The notes under the pieces are model-generated. The model saw only the letters and a program-made list of their open reading frames with translations, was not told the origin of the DNA and ran no database searches. Both the position numbers and the translations under genes were made by a program. Source: a virus (taxonomy: Duplodnaviria > Heunggongvirae > Uroviricota > Caudoviricetes). Taken from it: a DNA stretch of 24,165 nt. Where the stretch lies: the IMG/VR virus record IMGVR_UViG_648276649_000003, one strand, 5' to 3'. Of the stretch, positions 1,299 to 24,165 are shown piece by piece (the first letter of the stretch is position 1; each line of letters starts with the position of its first letter).

Positions 1299-2870
1299 AT
1301 GGACACCTCACTTGCTCATGAGAACGCCCGCCTGCGGGCACTGTTGCAGACGCAACAGGACACCATCCGCCAGATGGCTGAATACAACCGCCTGCTCTCA
1401 CAGCGGGTGGCGGCTTATGCTTCCGAAATCAACCGGCTGAAGGCGCTGGTTGCGAAACTGCAACGTATGCAGTTCGGTAAAAGCTCAGAAAAACTTCGTG
1501 CAAAAACCGAACGGCAGATACAGGAAGCACAGGAGCGAATCAGCGCACTTCAGGAAGAAATGGCGGAAACGCTGGGTGAGCAATATGACCCGGTACTGCC
1601 ATCCGCCCTGCGCCAGTCTTCAGCCCGTAAACCGTTACCGGCCTCACTTCCCCGTGAAACCCGGGTTATCCGGCCGGAAGAGGAATGCTGTCCTGCCTGT
1701 GGTGGTGAACTCAGTTCTCTGGGATGTGATGTGTCAGAGCAACTGGAGCTTATCAGCAGCGCCTTTAAGGTTATCGAAACACAACGTCCGAAACAGGCCT
1801 GTTGCCGGTGCGACCATATCGTGCAGGCACCAGTACCTTCAAAACCCATTGCACGCAGTTATGCCGGAGCGGGGCTTCTGGCCCATGTTGTCACCGGGAA
1901 ATATGCAGACCATCTGCCGTTATACCGCCAGTCAGAAATATACCGTCGTCAGGGAGTGGAGCTGAGCCGTGCCACACTGGGGCGCTGGACAGGTGCTGTT
2001 GCTGAACTGCTGGAGCCGCTGTATGACGTCCTGCGCCAGTATGTGCTGATGCCCGGTAAAGTCCATGCTGATGATATCCCCGTCCCGGTCCAGGAGCCGG
2101 GCAGCGGTAAAACCCGGACAGCCCGGCTGTGGGTCTACGTCCGTGATGACCGTAACGCCGGTTCACAGATGCCCCCGGCGGTCTGGTTCGCGTACAGTCC
2201 GGACCGGAAAGGTATCCATCCACAAAATCACCTGGCCGGTTACAGCGGTGTGCTTCAGGCCGATGCTTACGGTGGTTACCGGGCGTTATACGAATCCGGC
2301 AGAATAACGGAAGCCGCGTGTATGGCTCATGCCCGGAGAAAAATCCACGATGTGCATGCAAGAGCGCCCACCTACATCACCACGGAAGCCCTGCAGCGTA
2401 TCGGTGAACTGTATGCCATCGAGGCAGAGGTCCGGGGCTGTTCAGCAGAACAGCGTCTGGCGGCAAGAAAAGCCAGAGCCGCGCCACTGATGCAGTCACT
2501 GTATGACTGGATACAGCAACAGATGAAAACACTGTCGCGTCACTCAGATACGGCAAAAGCGTTCGCATACCTGCTGAAACAGTGGGATGCACTGAACGTG
2601 TACTGCAGTAATGGCTGGGTGGAAATCGACAACAACATCGCAGAGAACGCCTTACGGGGAGTGGCCGTAGGCCGGAAAAACTGGATGTTCGCGGGTTCCG
2701 ACAGCGGTGGTGAACATGCGGCGGTGTTGTACTCGCTGATCGGCACATGCCGTCTGAACAATGTGGAGCCAGAAAAGTGGCTGCGTTACGTCATTGAACA
2801 TATCCAGGACTGGCCGGCAAACCGGGTACGCGATCTGTTGCCCTGGAAAGTTGATCTGAGCTCTCAGTAA
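1299..2870 (+). CDS. IS66-family transposase (TnpC)
   Basis: 523-aa product with N-terminal coiled-coil/leucine-zipper region, CxxC...CxxC zinc-finger motif (CPACGG...CCRCDH) and conserved C-terminal core of IS66 transposases. Confidence 0.9.
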
Positions 2871-2900
2871 ATATCAATACGGTTCTGACGAGTCGCTTAC

Positions 2901-2908
2901 ACAAAAGT
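2901..2908. repeat. Target-site duplication, right copy (ACAAAAGT)
   Basis: Exact direct repeat of 194-201 immediately after the right IS end. Confidence 0.75.
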
Positions 2909-3109
2909 GACTACAGAAATAGTTGCAATTCATAATTGATCATGGGTTGTCAGTTAAACTCGTGGCGATTTAAATAGACTAATTGGGAGTGCGTCCATTA
3001 CTTATATCTTGTAATGTTAACTATCAGAAATGATACAAAGATAATATGTCTTTAAAGAAAAGGCTGATGGCGAAAAGTGGCCCGATGAGGGCCACAATAC
3101 GGCTGTCAC

Positions 3110-3442
3110 TTAGACGTAAATATCAATGGTGCCAGCGGTATTTGTATCGTCTTTTTTCTCTTCTTTTTTATCAGGCTGAACTGTCGCGTCTTCATTCTTT
3201 TTCTCTGCCTGCTGCCTTAACAACTGCTCCAGTTGAGCCCTGAGGCTTTCAATTTGCTTCTGTACCAATGCAGCCATTTCTTTTTTCTGCTGTGTCGTCA
3301 TCCCCTCTTCCGATGAGATTTTCCCAAGCTTTTCAGTCAGCACCTGAATTTGTCTTGTGATTTTGGCTATTTCTGATGTTCCTTCCGGGGCGGAGTTGTT
3401 TGAAATAACGGTTGAGGTATTTCCCTGAATTGTGACAGACAT
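3110..3442 (-). CDS. FlxA-like protein (110 aa, Q/K/E-rich coiled-coil)
   Basis: Translation MSVTIQGNTSTVISNNSAPEGTSEIAKITRQIQVLTEKL... matches my recollection of the FlxA-like family from E. coli prophages; the plus-strand sequence downstream of the ATG (rc of 3443-3456) reads AAAGGAGAAATCTATG, giving a Shine-Dalgarno-like AAGGAG. Confidence 0.55.
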   Translation of the reverse strand: MSVTIQGNTSTVISNNSAPEGTSEIAKITRQIQVLTEKLGKISSEEGMTTQQKKEMAALVQKQIESLRAQLEQLLRQQAEKKNEDATVQPDKKEEKKDDTNTAGTIDIYV

Positions 3443-16532: not shown

Positions 16533-16629
16533 ATAACCTCCAAATATTGCGCGTTATGCATGTTATTTCACGCAATTATTTTGCGCAAGTTGATTTGCTT
16601 ATCACGCAATAAAGAAATGTAATAAACGC
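16533..16629. promoter_or_regulatory. cro-cI divergent promoter/operator region with repeated TTGC...GCAA-type sites
   Basis: 97-bp intergenic region containing ATTGCGCG (16546-16553), TCACGCAA (16568-16575), palindromic TTGCGCAA (16581-16588) and a 15-bp site TTGCTTATCACGCAA (16595-16609). Confidence 0.6.
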
Positions 16630-17322
16630 ATGAACATAGGAAACCGAGTCAGACAACTTCGCCAAGCGAAGAACATGAAAATCGCCGATCTCGCTGAAGC
16701 AATAGGAGTAGATGCGGCGAACATCTCGCGCTTAGAAACGGGTAAGCAAAAACAATTTACCGAACAAACACTGAGTAATATTGCCAAGAGCTTAGGTGTT
16801 GATATTGCTGATCTCTTTACCTCTGCCCACAAAAGTAATACTGTATATAAAAACAGTAATAATGAGGATGTTGCGCAGGTGAAGGATGTGTTCCGTATTG
16901 AAATGCTGGATATCAGTGCCAGTGCGGGAAATGGCCTTATCCAGGGCGGTGATGTCATTGATGTGATTCATGCCATCGAATACAGAACTGATAATGCTGT
17001 ATCAATGTTCGGCGGACGACCAGCCAATCACATCAAAGTTATCAACGTTCGTGGGGACAGTATGTGTCCAACCATTGAGCCAGGAGATCTCATCTTCGTT
17101 GATGTCAGCATCAATCAGTTTGATGGTGATGGTATATATGTCTTTGGTTTTGATGACAAAATATACGTTAAAAGACTTCAAATGATTCCTGACAAACTGC
17201 TGGTGATTTCTGATAACCAGATTTACCGTGAATGGGGAATTACTAGCGAAAACGAACACCGATTCATGGTCTTTGGAAAGGTCTTAATCAGTCAGTCGCA
17301 AACCCTTAAGAGACATAATTAA
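16630..17322 (+). CDS. CI-like prophage repressor (HTH_XRE plus S24 LexA-like peptidase domain)
   Basis: 230 aa; N-terminal HTH (MKIADLAEAIGVDAANISRLETGKQ); C-terminal S24 signature (GDSMCPTIEPGDLIFVD ... YVKRL). Confidence 0.85.
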   Translation: MNIGNRVRQLRQAKNMKIADLAEAIGVDAANISRLETGKQKQFTEQTLSNIAKSLGVDIADLFTSAHKSNTVYKNSNNEDVAQVKDVFRIEMLDISASAGNGLIQGGDVIDVIHAIEYRTDNAVSMFGGRPANHIKVINVRGDSMCPTIEPGDLIFVDVSINQFDGDGIYVFGFDDKIYVKRLQMIPDKLLVISDNQIYREWGITSENEHRFMVFGKVLISQSQTLKRHN

Positions 17323-17340: not shown

Positions 17341-17363
17341 CGGCCACCGAAAGGTGGCTTTTT
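17341..17363 (+). terminator. Rho-independent terminator after cI
   Basis: GGCCACC-GAAA-GGTGGC hairpin followed by TTTTT, 20 bp after the cI stop. Confidence 0.7.
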
Positions 17364-17376
17364 AATACCTATAAAT

Positions 17377-17413
17377 TTGCATACCTCGCAAATATTACTT
17401 GCATATCTCGCAA
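17377..17413. promoter_or_regulatory. Two direct 15-bp operator-like sites (TTGCATACCTCGCAA and TTGCATATCTCGCAA), an OL-like position
   Basis: 14 of 15 identical, centre-to-centre spacing 22 bp; same TTGC-N7-GCAA pattern as the site at 16595-16609 on the other side of cI. Confidence 0.55.
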
Positions 17414-17661
17414 TTTAATTTTATCTTTTGTTCCAGACCAACTACCGGATTACAACAAAATCTGGTTGCAACACGGTGCATGTGTCGTAAGCAGTCAGTA
17501 AATGTCAAAAACGAACAGGCAGGACGCCCACGAAGTAGCCGCCTGGGGCATATGAAGTCCAGGATGATTCGTTAGCAACAAAAAAGCGCCCTACAGGACG
17601 CTTAGCTCTTTAACAATCTGGTCCCCATCAACAAGTAACTGATAACTTGAGGAGATGTGAA

Positions 17662-17868
17662 ATGCACAAAACAGAACCCAAAATCGTCGCGCCTGGCTAC
17701 ACAGATGAGGAAATTTATGAGTGGATGACAAAGAAGCTGGCAGCTATAAACCAGCTTCGTGAAGTGCTGTCTTATCGACAGGAAACAATAGACTCTTTAA
17801 AAAAACTGGATCAGGAAATCACGGTTTTATCACAGGATGTTACTTTAGATATTGTGCAGACAAATTAG
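17662..17868 (+). CDS. Hypothetical small acidic protein (68 aa), first gene of the presumed early-left operon
   Basis: ORF track begins at a TTG (17647); the in-frame ATG at 17662 is preceded by GAGGAG; 3' end overlaps the convergent 144-aa gene. Confidence 0.45.
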   Translation: MHKTEPKIVAPGYTDEEIYEWMTKKLAAINQLREVLSYRQETIDSLKKLDQEITVLSQDVTLDIVQTN

Positions 17869-18274
17869 GATCCCATTCATTTTCGTCAAAATCATCAAAG
17901 TGATGAATTTGTGATCTCCAGTCTCGATAATCTAAAAATTTCTGGGCGGTTACGCTTATTTTATCAAGTGTGAGTTCATCCTGAATTGAAAGAAGAAGTT
18001 CATCAAATTTCATCTCATTAATCTGTTTTGGCATCCAGTGATGCTTCATCAGAATAAGGTGAACCAGAGCCTTTTTCCCATTCAACTGATTATAGGGAGT
18101 GCCGAATTTCTTCCGGTGCTCATGTAAGACAAGGTCCAAAAGAGTAAGTAATGTTGCCCTTGATTCAACTTTGCTTATTTCGACTGATGACACTACCCCA
18201 CTGATTTCAATGCCCCGATACTTTCCAACATTTTCACAGTGGGATTTGTACAGCGTATAGATATTACCGGACAT
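17840..18274 (-). CDS. Hypothetical protein (144 aa), AT-rich, antisense to the early-left operon
   Basis: Clean ORF with no large competing frame; unusual composition and orientation suggest acquired cargo; no recognisable motif. Confidence 0.5.
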   Translation of the reverse strand: MSGNIYTLYKSHCENVGKYRGIEISGVVSSVEISKVESRATLLTLLDLVLHEHRKKFGTPYNQLNGKKALVHLILMKHHWMPKQINEMKFDELLLSIQDELTLDKISVTAQKFLDYRDWRSQIHHFDDFDENEWDPNLSAQYLK

Positions 18275-18289
18275 TTCTTTTCCTTTTGC

Positions 18290-18720
18290 GTTGTTGGGGA
18301 TAACCAGATTAACCGAATCCTTGTTGTTGGGGAATAACTAGGTCCACCTCGCCTGATGTGGCTAAAAGCAGGCACATAACAGCTAAGTATTTTCAACCAG
18401 AGAGAATCCTTAGCGTTGTGGTGAATGCGGCTCAGCGCACGCGGGTTAAGGTTGAGGCTGACAGTCGACCTTCTGTGGATACCCACCCGCCTGGTGTGCA
18501 ACCTTCGCCAGGCACCGGGAGGCACCCGGCACCACAACTTTATGCTGTGTGTAGTCTTGGCGGTACCAGCTTGTACCCTTGCTTCCGGCTGGTACCGTCC
18601 TTTTTACAAAACAGAGAAGAGCATCACCGGACGACGGGCTCATAACCCAATCCATCCGGGCGGCAGTCACCGCAGGTGTTCTTCTCTGTTTTGTGGAGAA
18701 ACTAACCGACCTTGCAGGGT
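18290..18720. other. GC-rich structured non-coding island (candidate regulatory RNA or leader)
   Basis: About 430 bp with only short mutually overlapping ORFs; many perfect hairpins, including a 10-bp stem and a 13-14-bp long-range stem; direct repeat GTTGTTGGGGA(A)TAA at 18283-18296 and 18314-18328. Confidence 0.4.
18561..18605 (+). terminator. Intrinsic-terminator-like hairpin (CGGTACCAGC / GCTGGTACCG, 17-nt loop) followed by TTTTT
   Basis: Perfect 10-bp stem at 18561-18570 and 18588-18597, then T5 at 18601-18605, on the strand of the early-left genes. Confidence 0.55.
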
Positions 18721-21317: not shown

Positions 21318-21667
21318 TGGAGCCATACAGCCTCACACTCGATGAGGCCTGTCATTTTCTCAAGATATCCAGACCGACTGCCATTAACTGGATACGCACA
21401 GGGCGTCTTCAGGCAACACGCAAAGATCCCACTAAGAATAAATCTCCTTACCTCACAACACGACAAGCCTGCATTGCGGCTCTTCAGTCTCCGCTGCATA
21501 CTGTCCAGGTGAGCGCGGGTGATGGCATAACAGAGGAAAGAAAATGTCACTCTTCCGCAGAGGTGAAATATGGTACGCCAGTTTCACATTGCCGAACGGT
21601 AAAAGATTTAAACAGTCTCTTGGAACAAAGGACAAAAGGCAGGCGACAGAACTCCATGACAAGCTAA
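21317..21667 (+). CDS. xis: Excisionase (Xis, AlpA/e14 XisE-like HTH); 3' end uncertain
   Basis: [36 protein letters not shown] is an excisionase-type winged helix; the frame stays open to 21667 and so overlaps the int start by about 120 nt. Confidence 0.6.
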
Positions 21668-22707
21668 AGGCTGAAGCATGGCGGGTCAGCAAACTTGGTG
21701 AAATACCTGATATAACGTTCGAGGAAGCGTGTGTCAGGTGGCTTGAAGAGAAAGCACATAAAAAATCACTGGACGATGACAAAAGCCGGATCGGATTCTG
21801 GCTTCAACATTTCGCAGGAATGCAACTAAGAGACATTACTGAATCAAAAATTTATTCAGCAATGCATAAAATGACGAACCGGCGTCATGAGGAAAACTGG
21901 AAACTCAGGGCAGAAGCATGCAGAAAAAAAGGGAAACCTGTTCCAGAATACACGCCAAAACCAGCGTCCGTTGCAACGAAGGCTACGCATCTTTCATTTA
22001 TAAAGGCCCTACTAAGAGCCGCAGAGCGTGAATGGAAAATGCTGGATAAGGCACCAATTATTAAAGTGCCCCAACCAAAGAATAAACGGATCCGCTGGCT
22101 GGAGCCCCATGAAGCACAAAGGCTGATTGATGAATGTCCGGAGCCATTAAAGTCTGTTGTTGAATTTGCACTGGCAACAGGCCTAAGACGCTCGAACATC
22201 ATCAACCTTGAATGGCAACAAATAGATATGCAGCGCCGGGTGGCATGGATAAACCCGGAAGAGAGTAAATCAAACCGCGCAATTGGCGTTGCGCTGAATG
22301 ATACTGCATGTCGCGTATTGAAAAAACAAATCGGGAATCATCACCGTTGGGTATTTGTGTACAAGGAAAGCTGTACCAAACCAGACGGAACGAAAGCGCC
22401 AACAGTCAGGAAGATGCGGTATGACGCAAACACAGCCTGGAAAGCGGCGCTGAGACGGGCTGGTATTGATGATTTCAGATTTCACGACTTGAGACACACC
22501 TGGGCAAGTTGGCTGGTTCAAGCCGGAGTCCCGTTGTCAGTGTTACAGGAAATGGGAGGCTGGGAGTCTATCGAAATGGTTCGTCGATATGCTCACCTTG
22601 CACCTAATCACCTTACCGAACACGCACGGCAAATAGACTCGATCCTGAACCCATCGGTCCCAAATTTGTCCCAGTCAAAAAATAAGGAAGGTACTAATGA
22701 TGTGTAA
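21544..22707 (+). CDS. int: Tyrosine-recombinase phage integrase (lambda/e14 IntE-like)
   Basis: 387 aa; N-terminus [21 protein letters not shown]; catalytic-domain motifs (...[11 protein letters not shown]...VRRYAHL); stop is 15 bp from the tRNA 3' end. Confidence 0.9.
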
Positions 22708-22721
22708 CTTATTGATTTAAA

Positions 22722-22797
22722 TGGTGCCGATAATAGGAGTCGAACCTACGACCTTCGCATTACGAATGCGCTGCTCTACCAACTGAGCTATATCGGC
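22722..22797 (-). tRNA. thrW: tRNA-Thr (anticodon CGU)
   Basis: Reverse complement reads GCCGATATAGCTCAGTTGGTAGAGCAGCGCATTCGTAATGCGAAGGTCGTAGGTTCGACTCCTATTATCGGCACCA: cloverleaf with anticodon loop TTCGTAA and encoded CCA. Confidence 0.9.
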
Positions 22798-22911: not shown

Positions 22912-24165
22912 TTACGCACGAATGGTGTAATCACCAATGCCGATCCACTTGTAAGTGGTCAGTGCTTCCAGCCCCATTGGGCCACGCGCGTGGAGTTTTT
23001 GTGTGCTTACCGCCACTTCCGCACCCAGACCAAACTGGCCGCCGTCGGTAAAACGCGTAGAGGCGTTAACGTAAACAGCGGACGAATCCACTTCGTTAAC
23101 AAAACGCTGGGCGTTGCGCATATCGCGGGTCAGGATCGCATCGGAGTGTTGTGTGCCGTGTTCACGAATATGGGCGATGGCATCGTCAAGATCGCTGACG
23201 ATTTTGACGTTCAAATCTAATGACAGAAACTCATCGTCATACTCTTCGGCTTTAACAGCAACCACCTTCGCAGGGCCTGCCTGCAACTGCGCCAGTGCAG
23301 CTGCATCTGCGTGTAATGTCACGCCGCTTTCCGCCATTTGTTTGCTTAATGCGGGCAGGAAGCTATCGGCGATGTTTTTATTCACCAGCAACGTTTCAAC
23401 CGTATTACATGTGCTCGGACGCTGAGTTTTCGCGTTGACGATCACTTTTAATGCTTCAGCGATCTCTACACTTTCATCAACGTAAATATGGCATACGCCT
23501 ATACCACCTGTGATCACCGGGATTGTCGACTGTTCACGGCACAGTTTATGCAAACCAGCGCCACCACGCGGGATCAGCATGTCGATGTATTTATCCATAC
23601 GCAGCATTTCACTGACCAGCGCACGGTCAGGATTATCAATCGCCTGCACGGCACCCGCCGGTAAGCCGCAGGATTTCAGGGCGTCCTGAATCACCGCCAC
23701 CGTTGCAGCGTTAGTGCGACACGTTTCTTTGCCACCGCGCAGGATCACCGCATTACCGGTTTTCAGGCACAGCGAAGCGACATCAACCGTCACGTTCGGG
23801 CGCGCTTCATAAATCACGCCAATAACCCCCAGCGGTACGCGACGACGCTCAAGACGCAGGCCGCTGTCCAGTACGCTGCCATCGATTACCTGCCCCACCG
23901 GATCGGCGAGGTTACACACCTGGCGCACATCATCGGCAATGCCTTTCAGCCGTGCGGGCGTCAGTGCCAGACGGTCAAGCATCGCTTCGCCAAGGCCATT
24001 GGCACGCGCGTCAGCAACATCCTGGGCGTTAGCGTTGAGGATGATTTCGCTTTGTGCTTCCAGTTCATCGGCGATTTTTTCCAGCACGCGATTTTTTTCG
24101 CGGCTGGAGAGTTGCGCTAATTTATACGAGGCTTGCTTCGCGGCAATGCCCATTTGTTCCAGCAT
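22912..24165 (-). CDS. proA: Gamma-glutamyl phosphate reductase
   Basis: 417-aa product ([38 protein letters not shown]...) recognisable as enterobacterial ProA; the start codon coincides with the window end. Confidence 0.95.

Follow-up and report, generated by a model that had tools for sequence, protein, structure and literature searches.

A conserved, convergent pair of ydfC-like and ECs1072-family genes occupies the sieB position of a thrW-integrated prophage

Two small open reading frames (ORFs), ORF68 and ORF144, converge and overlap at their 3′ ends at the head of the putative early-left (pL) operon in the IMG/VR virus record IMGVR_UViG_648276649_000003. This stretch of 24,165 nucleotides (nt), hereafter the window, is a thrW-integrated prophage of the SfII/SfIV/SfV (CPS-53-like) type in the Caudoviricetes. 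Judged by their sequences and those of related prophages, the two genes are best explained as a two-gene module, conserved and mobile among prophages, that has inserted at the start of a lytic operon. ORF68 lies on the + strand at 17662–17868 (ATG at 17662, stop ending at 17868) and encodes 68 amino acids (aa); its ribosome-binding site reads GAGGAG at 17649–17654 (+), 7 nt 5′ of the ATG. ORF144 lies on the − strand at 17840–18274 (start at 18274, end at 17840), antisense to the pL operon, and encodes 144 aa; an AAGGA ribosome-binding site can be read at 18281–18285 (−), 6 nt 5′ of its ATG. The 3′-3′ overlap, which involves both strands, spans 29 bp (17840–17868). GC content is 40.1% for ORF68 and 37.9% for ORF144, against 50.6% for the window. 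An initial annotation, made from the letters without database searches, had described an acidic 68-aa + strand ORF with a GAGGAG site, an AT-rich 144-aa ORF on the − strand and a 3′ overlap of about 29 bp, and each of these descriptions is confirmed.

Judged by its sequence, ORF68 is a member of the YdfC family. Its match to phrog_1744 covers residues 1–68 of 68 (E = 6e-35), tblastn aligns residues 1–66 with YdfC of PPompW-type and other E. coli phages at 39–41% identity (E = 2e-9), and a YdfC-seeded hidden Markov model (HMM) scores it at 123 bits, with the common N-terminal motif EPxIxAxGxTxEELxxW. The protein is acidic (isoelectric point 4.78; 12 D+E against 8 K+R) and is predicted to be soluble and to form a coiled coil, with no predicted transmembrane (TM) segment. 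Pfam and PADLOC returned no match for ORF68, and literature searches on YdfC function found nothing. YdfC of the Qin prophage (ydfA-ydfB-ydfC-dicF-dicB-ydfD) is a homologue that shares both the N-terminal motif and the predicted coiled coil. The genes also share a position. ORF68 is the first credible ORF past the operators and pL candidate (17377–17427) and is therefore promoter-proximal in the early operon, as ydfC is in the repressor-controlled dicBF operon of Qin (PMC5069750). PPompW-type phages carry ydfC after dicA and before DicF and dicB, and ORF68 matches this dicA-ydfC layout. Likewise, a small RNA (sRNA) lies downstream on the same strand in each case: dicF after ydfC in Qin, and a DicF-like match (18546–18600) beyond ORF144 in the window. 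The arrangements differ in that Qin and the PPompW-type phages have no ECs1072 gene facing ydfC, whereas in the window ORF144, in antisense orientation, separates the ydfC-like gene from the sRNA region.

By profile comparison, ORF144 is a full-length member of the ECs1072 family. The NCBIfam model NF033230, ‘ECs1072 family phage-associated protein’, scores it at 157.8 bits against a cut-off of 70 and aligns over model positions 2–142 of 142; phrog_5286 also matches it (E = 1.5e-90). An exhaustive profile search of 1.84 billion proteins returned only 76 representatives of ECs1072-like proteins at 50% clustering. Most are full-length, stand-alone proteins of ∼145–155 aa, the shorter entries look like fragments, and the named members come from Escherichia, Salmonella, Pectobacterium, Symbiopectobacterium, Lonsdalea, and Pantoea. 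The protein is acidic and predicted to be soluble, with no predicted TM segment, and its AlphaFold2 model is all-alpha and confident (pLDDT 93.4). Of the profile and structure searches that the initial annotation had proposed for both proteins, the profile searches placed both ORFs in families, whereas for ORF144 Pfam, PADLOC, and a sequence profile search of the PDB found no relative and Foldseek of its model against BFVD gave nothing informative. Pfam was also blank across 57 family members. In that comparison with BFVD the confident model matched no known fold. The defence models of PADLOC-DB v2 matched neither ORF68, nor ORF144, nor the other cargo proteins found at the same site (see below).

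The ECs1072 family carries a placeholder name, and literature searches found neither the pairing nor the slot relations reported here in its description. Those searches returned nothing on ECs1072 beyond one microarray table; in uninduced O157 Sakai, ECs1072 gave a regulated microarray signal (PMC2241611). Full-length ECs1072-like genes are also unannotated in the GenBank records of ST64B (L005, ∼2339–2776) and of Klebsiella phages (L018 and L019, ∼2842–3288). Each sits there in antisense orientation, with Q (or sb49/sb50) on one side and the holin gene on the other, and overlaps an annotated small gene (Sb50 in ST64B; GP45).

The first hint of a conserved pair came from a tblastn search with ORF68, which found an 81-aa ORF convergent with and overlapping an ECs1072-like gene in a Pantoea P2-type prophage. 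A three-sequence HMM then gave as its best new matches Sb50 of ST64B and the corresponding ORFs of the Klebsiella phages, all of them convergent with ECs1072-like genes. A survey of 189 loci with an ECs1072-like ORF, assembled from IMG/VR scans with five sub-family alignments and from earlier loci, then placed a YdfC-like ORF on the opposite strand, convergent and 3′-overlapping, in 169. Seen from the partner, 169 of the 174 partner-HMM matches (among 15,969 ORFs) fall at exactly that convergent position. We rely on cluster-level counts because the survey was pattern-seeded and redundant: the partner is present in 43 of 53 clusters at 85% identity and 25 of 31 at 60% identity. Among the 43 cluster representatives with a partner the overlap ranges from 29 to 203 nt (median 83). 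The partners share the consensus KQEPyIfAgGmTnEELedWL, followed by a heptad-like helix. Partner and ECs1072-like protein co-diverge (Mantel r 0.70, a value that 0 of 2000 permutations reach), and the co-divergence holds down to median identities of 35% and 31%. The initial annotation had treated the two as a pair, and the recurrence in 169 of 189 loci and the Mantel correlation support them as linked genes and not chance neighbours. Both are real genes, as it had also supposed; each matches a protein family, their overlap recurs, and 407 of 5426 complete E. coli genomes contain the cassette that carries them.

Several loci depart from this pattern. In L012 (5269–5640), L015 (5278–5757), L117 (2763–3128), and L123 (2763–3383) the convergent ORF is of another type, ∼105–120 aa long with an overlap of ∼180 nt, and in L017 (5260–5649) a split ORF places a YdfC-like N-terminal piece and a C-terminal piece of the other type in two adjacent frames. 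We tentatively regard this second type as either a long-form partner or an artefact of opposite-strand conservation, since the ECs1072 coding sequence lies on the strand opposite its conserved part. In E. albertii (L011, 699–1312), the ORF68 homologue is 98% identical over its first 48 residues and then changes frame, and the ORF144 homologue is only 72% identical. The contrast between 98% and 72% points to a recombination joint inside the pair.

Seeded tblastn classification assigned the loci to three genomic contexts. In context A the module is next to cI, with cI on the partner strand, cro and cII on the other strand, and yfdP/yfdQ or rdgC beyond the ECs1072 gene. In context B, seen in ST64B and the Klebsiella phages, it lies between Q and the holin/lysozyme genes. 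In context C it lies inside the early, P2-type cox-to-A operon. The order is the same in all three: a lytic regulator or promoter, the small gene in sense orientation, the ECs1072 gene in antisense orientation, and the rest of the operon. By a crude gene call, both nearest neighbours are oriented opposite to the ECs1072 gene in 31 of the 53 cluster representatives. The initial annotation had read the 144-aa gene as independently regulated cargo running antisense to the early-left operon; it is swappable cargo, and antisense in every context examined.

The window belongs to context A, and there the module occupies a known phage locus. A P22-like genome (L197) has the order c2(+), 24/N(+), sieB(−), ral(+), with sas overlapping the sieB start and 53 nt upstream of sieB. 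The window has the order cI, terminator, OL/pL, ORF68, ORF144 (antisense), sas-like element, STnc100/PasD-type match, yfdP. The sas-like element (18344–18378) consists of a CCAC-N10-GTGG hairpin followed by CTAAAAGCAGGCACA (TGTGCCTGCTTTTAGCCACATCAGGCGAGGTGG on the − strand), and is homologous to the 3′ part of P22 sas RNA and to the sieB upstream region; the published sas sequence contains it as ...AACCACCGAGCCUGACGUGGUUAAAAGACAGGCACAA (PMC13397905). In a regular-expression search, the core hairpin (18344–18361) preceded the ECs1072-like gene in 27 of the 31 context-A clusters, against none of the 13 in contexts B and C. In many diverged context-A loci the ∼90 nt 5′ of the ECs1072-like gene are far better conserved than the proteins, with the shared upstream sequence GCCTGtcTTTTcACCACnTCAGGCnnGGTGGTATCTTGG followed by the 5′ untranslated region (UTR) CTCACACAACCAAGAAGG. 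In the window, the ORF144 5′ UTR/upstream segment (18290–18343, − strand) is common to different − strand cargo genes at this site. The shared position and upstream element place ORF144 in the sieB position and ORF68 in that of the first pL gene (24/N in P22). ORF144 thus lies antisense to pL, next to the first pL gene and behind a sas/sieB-upstream element, and what it shares with sieB is the slot, not membership of the SieB family. As a SieB relative it was rejected: PF14163 does not match it, and hhalign of the ECs1072 profile against SieB gives a probability of 0.1%; the P22-like SieB itself matches PF14163 at 5e-29.

Two further features lie near the ORF144 start. The ORF144 5′ UTR contains an imperfect direct duplication of ∼35 nt (∼18287–18337, − strand; TTATTCCCCAACAACAAGG ... 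GTTATCCCCAACAACGCAAAAGG), which sets the sas-like element farther from the start codon than in relatives. A consensus scan also returned a candidate promoter for a sas-like RNA, TTCACA-17-TATAGA (18233–18261, + strand), antisense to the ORF144 start region. This candidate is weak, because the same criteria missed the sas promoter of P22.

Pairwise BLAST of the window against related prophages indicates that the slot is a site of cassette exchange. We define the slot as window positions 17574–18343, from the pL leader to the sas-like element, and compared L002, L003, and L006–L009 across it. The cassette that carries ORF68 and ORF144, as delimited by BLAST breakpoints, spans 17622–18289 (GC 0.391). 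Between the same flanks, the E. coli prophages L006–L008 carry single, unrelated − strand genes of 167–171 aa, with breakpoints at 17621/17634 and 18290/18304; they have in common with the window the − strand terminator side (to 17621–17634) and the upstream side (from 18290–18304). SfV orf33 and L009 instead carry + strand cargo, genes of 91–98 aa, and against these + strand cassettes the breakpoints are 17573 and 18344. A third arrangement is found in SfII, where these flanks enclose a 63-aa − strand ORF (SfII_36). Pfam and PADLOC matched none of the alternative cargo proteins. A leader segment (17507–17573, + strand) is kept in all cassette types at the slot, SfV and SfII included, by pairwise BLAST of the window with SfV, SfII, SfIV, and E. 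coli prophages. Slot flanks are present in 1927 of the 5426 complete E. coli genomes, of which the 407 mentioned above have the ORF68/ORF144 cassette.

The signals for transcript ends are likewise arranged around the cassette. A − strand intrinsic terminator (17584–17603; hairpin then TTTTTTG, −11.5 kcal/mol) is common to loci with − strand cargo. A second − strand hairpin lies inside ORF68 at 17758–17733, 82 nt past the ORF144 stop (−15.6 kcal/mol, z −4.6); its T-run is weak (UUUGU), and it is a possible first terminator of the ORF144 transcript. No strong + strand terminator was found between ORF68 and the downstream operon, where the sole candidate is at 17943–17958 (−6.6 kcal/mol).

Upstream of the pair, the cI-type repressor gene (16630–17322, + strand; Peptidase_S24 and HTH_3/HTH_26 domains in Pfam) lies in a region with 98% DNA identity to the SfII cI region by pairwise BLAST. 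It is followed by a terminator (17342–17359, + strand) with a 7-bp GC-rich stem and TTTTT (−13.2 kcal/mol, z −3.5). Two OL operator copies come next, TTGCATACCTCGCAA at 17377–17391 and TTGCATATCTCGCAA at 17399–17413, both exact matches to TTGC-N6-CGCAA. Across the whole window, exact copies of this sequence occur only in this OL pair and in OR (16595–16609). A relaxed consensus scan gave TTGCAT-17-TATCTT (17399–17427, + strand), which overlaps the second OL copy and which, from its consensus and this overlap, we infer to be the candidate early-left promoter pL. A 58-aa TTG ORF at 17399–17575 was set aside as probably spurious, because its start lies inside OL/pL and it has no homologue.

This anatomy revises where the pair was thought to lie. 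The initial annotation had placed it just downstream of cI, at the rexAB-like moron position. The gene and its terminator are indeed just upstream, and lambda rexAB is likewise an accessory two-gene unit close to the repressor gene. However, rexAB share a transcript with cI and are located between it and OL, whereas ORF68 and ORF144 lie beyond the cI terminator and OL/pL, and are convergent where rexAB are co-directional. Pfam and PADLOC gave no RexA or RexB homology for either protein. With OL/pL between the cI terminator and the pair, the genes belong to the repressed early-left operon and not to a rexAB-like position. As the first gene of a cI-repressed pL, ORF68 should be silent in the lysogen and made once pL fires. 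The proposal that the pair is cargo expressed in the lysogen therefore does not suit ORF68, a YdfC homologue at the head of that repressed operon.

Several other features complete the picture of the window. DNA of the region is 98–99.6% identical to Shigella phage SfIV and Escherichia phages Kati, 569R4, and 689R6. The integrase gene (21544–22707) abuts a tRNA-Thr(CGT) gene (22722–22797) at the thrW-type attachment end of the prophage, and a 417-aa host ORF (22912–24165) lies beyond the tRNA. In the GC-rich conserved stretch between the cassette and yfdP, positions 18385–18608 (+ strand) give a sub-threshold match to the prophage sRNA STnc100 (43.4 bits against a gathering score of 47; E = 1e-7). 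The 3′ hairpin of this match (18546–18600) also resembles DicF (19.4 bits), and 27 of the 28 nt at 18417–18444 are identical to PPompW DNA immediately 3′ of DicF (L004, 4268–4295). A 2026 preprint relates STnc100 to PasD sRNAs. SfV (L002, 317–505, − strand) has matches to C4 antisense RNA and isrK near its replication genes (82 and 64 bits); a gathering-threshold scan of the window found neither.

The sieB/esc/sas system of P22, together with sieB of lambda, provides a model for how the pair may work. In both cases a gene just past cI/OL/pL runs antisense to the pL operon and converges on its first gene, behind homologous upstream elements. There are clear differences. ORF144 has no sequence or profile similarity to SieB, and is predicted to be soluble, whereas SieB has been described as membrane-associated. 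The candidate partner is a separate convergent gene, whereas Esc, which provides the escape function, is reportedly an in-frame internal product of sieB (work attributed to Ranade and Poteete, 1993). The first pL gene of P22 is the antiterminator 24/N; here it encodes an acidic YdfC-like protein. The ECs1072 module is also found away from the sieB slot, in Q-holin and P2-type operons. In concept, the likeness is to a prophage-expressed effector, a phage-made escape factor, and control by a cis-antisense RNA (PMC13397905 and PMC10883804). P22 sieB is expressed from the prophage (PMC10883804), and sas is antisense to sieB and switches its translation (PMC13397905). The idea of an exclusion function, first raised in the initial annotation, gains a concrete basis here, because the ORF144 upstream region is homologous to that of this prophage-expressed gene.

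We conjecture that the pair works like sieB/esc/sas, with a prophage-expressed effector, a lytic-phase partner, and antisense control; we hold this reading to be plausible, if somewhat short of probable. In the lysogen, ORF144 would be transcribed from the sieB-type upstream region. The 3′ UTR of its transcript would run antisense through ORF68, as far as the 17758–17733 hairpin or the 17603–17584 terminator, and ORF68 would be kept off. Upon induction or infection, pL transcription would cross ORF68 and then all of ORF144 in antisense, and a sas-like RNA may add to the antisense effect on ORF144. ORF144 would then cease to be expressed, and the ORF68 protein would be made. If the parallel with sieB/esc/sas holds, the prophage would express ORF144 as an effector of exclusion or abortive infection, which the YdfC-like protein would counter in the lytic phase, allowing escape or self-immunity. 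We infer this expression pattern, the antisense control, the antagonism between the two proteins, and the role in exclusion from the anatomy of the locus and from the analogy, which together make a good candidate for a new prophage exclusion system. The signal of ECs1072 in uninduced O157 Sakai (PMC2241611) and the harmlessness of ydfABC expression in the absence of dicB and dicF (PMC5069750) lend the reading indirect support. A broader proposal, which we put forward as speculative and rather doubtful, is that the ECs1072 protein and its YdfC-like partner constitute a two-protein system for exclusion or abortive infection, with self-immunity built in, that has so far gone unrecognised. Such a system would have replaced sieB/esc without being homologous to it, while retaining the upstream/sas element of the sieB type. 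The effector, with a fold that has no known relative, would come from the prophage; the partner that neutralises it would be encoded on the first lytic transcript (pL, pR′ or P2 Pe), and the overlap of the two convergent transcription units would serve as the switch.

A number of observations weigh against the sieB-like reading. Even with relaxed criteria, no sigma-70 consensus promoter was found 5′ of ORF144 in the window. The upstream region of relatives holds TTCACC-17-TATCTT, ending 31–35 nt before the ATG; in the window the −10 sequence TATCTT is replaced and the corresponding sequence is TTAGCC-17-CCTAGT. A partner encoded in the Q-holin context would be made only late, and so fits poorly with an early self-immunity factor. 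The partner's share of the overlap is its C-terminal tail, whose sequence varies and which has undergone a frameshift in E. albertii; the overlap may thus reflect compaction and not regulation. True ECs1072-like singletons without a YdfC-like partner exist (L010, L110–L116, L119, and L188), and, conversely, Qin and 19 phage records have YdfC proper but no ECs1072 gene. The survey counts themselves come from a partner HMM that was iterated on the same 189 loci, and these loci are redundant and were found by ECs1072-subfamily patterns.

The separate occurrences of the two families would be expected if the genes were functionally unrelated, with ORF68 an ordinary early-left YdfC gene, ORF144 an independent moron, and both favouring recombination-prone operon heads. 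The recombination joint inside the E. albertii pair (98% identity for ORF68, 72% for ORF144) and the frequent exchange of slot content fit such neighbours as well. Yet the same polarity and overlap recur in three unrelated operon contexts, 169 of 174 partner matches exactly adjoin an ECs1072-like gene, and the two proteins co-diverge down to ∼30% identity with a Mantel r of 0.70; we therefore consider unrelated neighbours unlikely. A different possibility, which appears distinctly unlikely, is that ORF144 is an accessory protein of the lytic phase, acting for instance in host takeover or anti-defence. After infection the phage would activate a promoter dedicated to ORF144, and the YdfC-like protein would assist it as a cofactor instead of opposing it. 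This reading would accommodate the lack of a recognisable constitutive promoter in the window, the acidic and soluble character of both proteins, and the copies in the late region. However, simultaneous high expression of both genes is unlikely given their antisense orientation and overlap, ECs1072 was detected in uninduced Sakai (PMC2241611), and the slot and upstream element are those of sieB, which is expressed from the prophage (PMC10883804).

The module could also act chiefly at the level of RNA or transcription, with antisense transcription of the ORF144 unit colliding with that from a leaky pL (or pR′) to stabilise lysogeny or the timing of the operon, and the ORF144 protein of secondary importance. 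Cis-antisense pairs with 3′ overlaps, such as lambda oop/cII and the type I toxin-antitoxin pair bsrG/SR4, illustrate that expression of one strand can depress that of the other, and the face-to-face promoters of P2 and 186 are a further precedent. Such pairs resemble ORF68/ORF144 in their convergent transcripts with overlapping 3′ ends, but one partner there is a non-coding RNA, whereas both strands here encode conserved proteins. The module is always antisense at the head of a lytic operon, and at cI-context loci conservation is higher in the upstream region and 5′ UTR than in the coding sequence, as a role in RNA would predict. ORF144 is nonetheless clearly under protein-level conservation, with invariant residues, a 142-aa family model, and a confident fold prediction, and other, unrelated cargo ORFs use the same shell; we regard a primarily RNA-level role as very unlikely. 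Least probable, in our estimate, is the toxin-antitoxin-like pair suggested in the initial annotation, an addiction module that would stabilise the prophage through a host-toxic product and its neutralising counterpart. A conserved unit of two small proteins that moves as a cassette would suit it, and some type I systems have a similar convergent 3′ overlap. Against it, the genes are convergent with a 29-bp 3′ overlap and not a co-directional operon of type II, neither encodes a membrane peptide, and ECs1072-like and YdfC-like genes can each occur alone. Scans with Pfam and PADLOC, including those of family members, found no DNA-binding antitoxin domain and no known toxin fold. Moreover, deletion of dicB and dicF leaves the Qin operon, ydfABC included, without toxicity (PMC5069750).

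The pair is widespread. The cassette is present in ∼7.5% of complete E. coli genomes, and related pairs occur in prophages of Salmonella (ST64B), Klebsiella, Pantoea, Pectobacterium, and other enterobacteria, although both families are annotated only as hypothetical. Literature searches suggest that the module and its relation to the sieB locus have not been described. Fixed polarity and the sieB slot turn two anonymous ORFs into a specific prediction of an effector, a lytic-phase partner, and antisense control. If that prediction is false, the conserved convergent overlap needs another explanation. If it is true, the pair would be a new exclusion system with a new fold, and the sieB locus would be a general expression platform for exchangeable prophage cargo.

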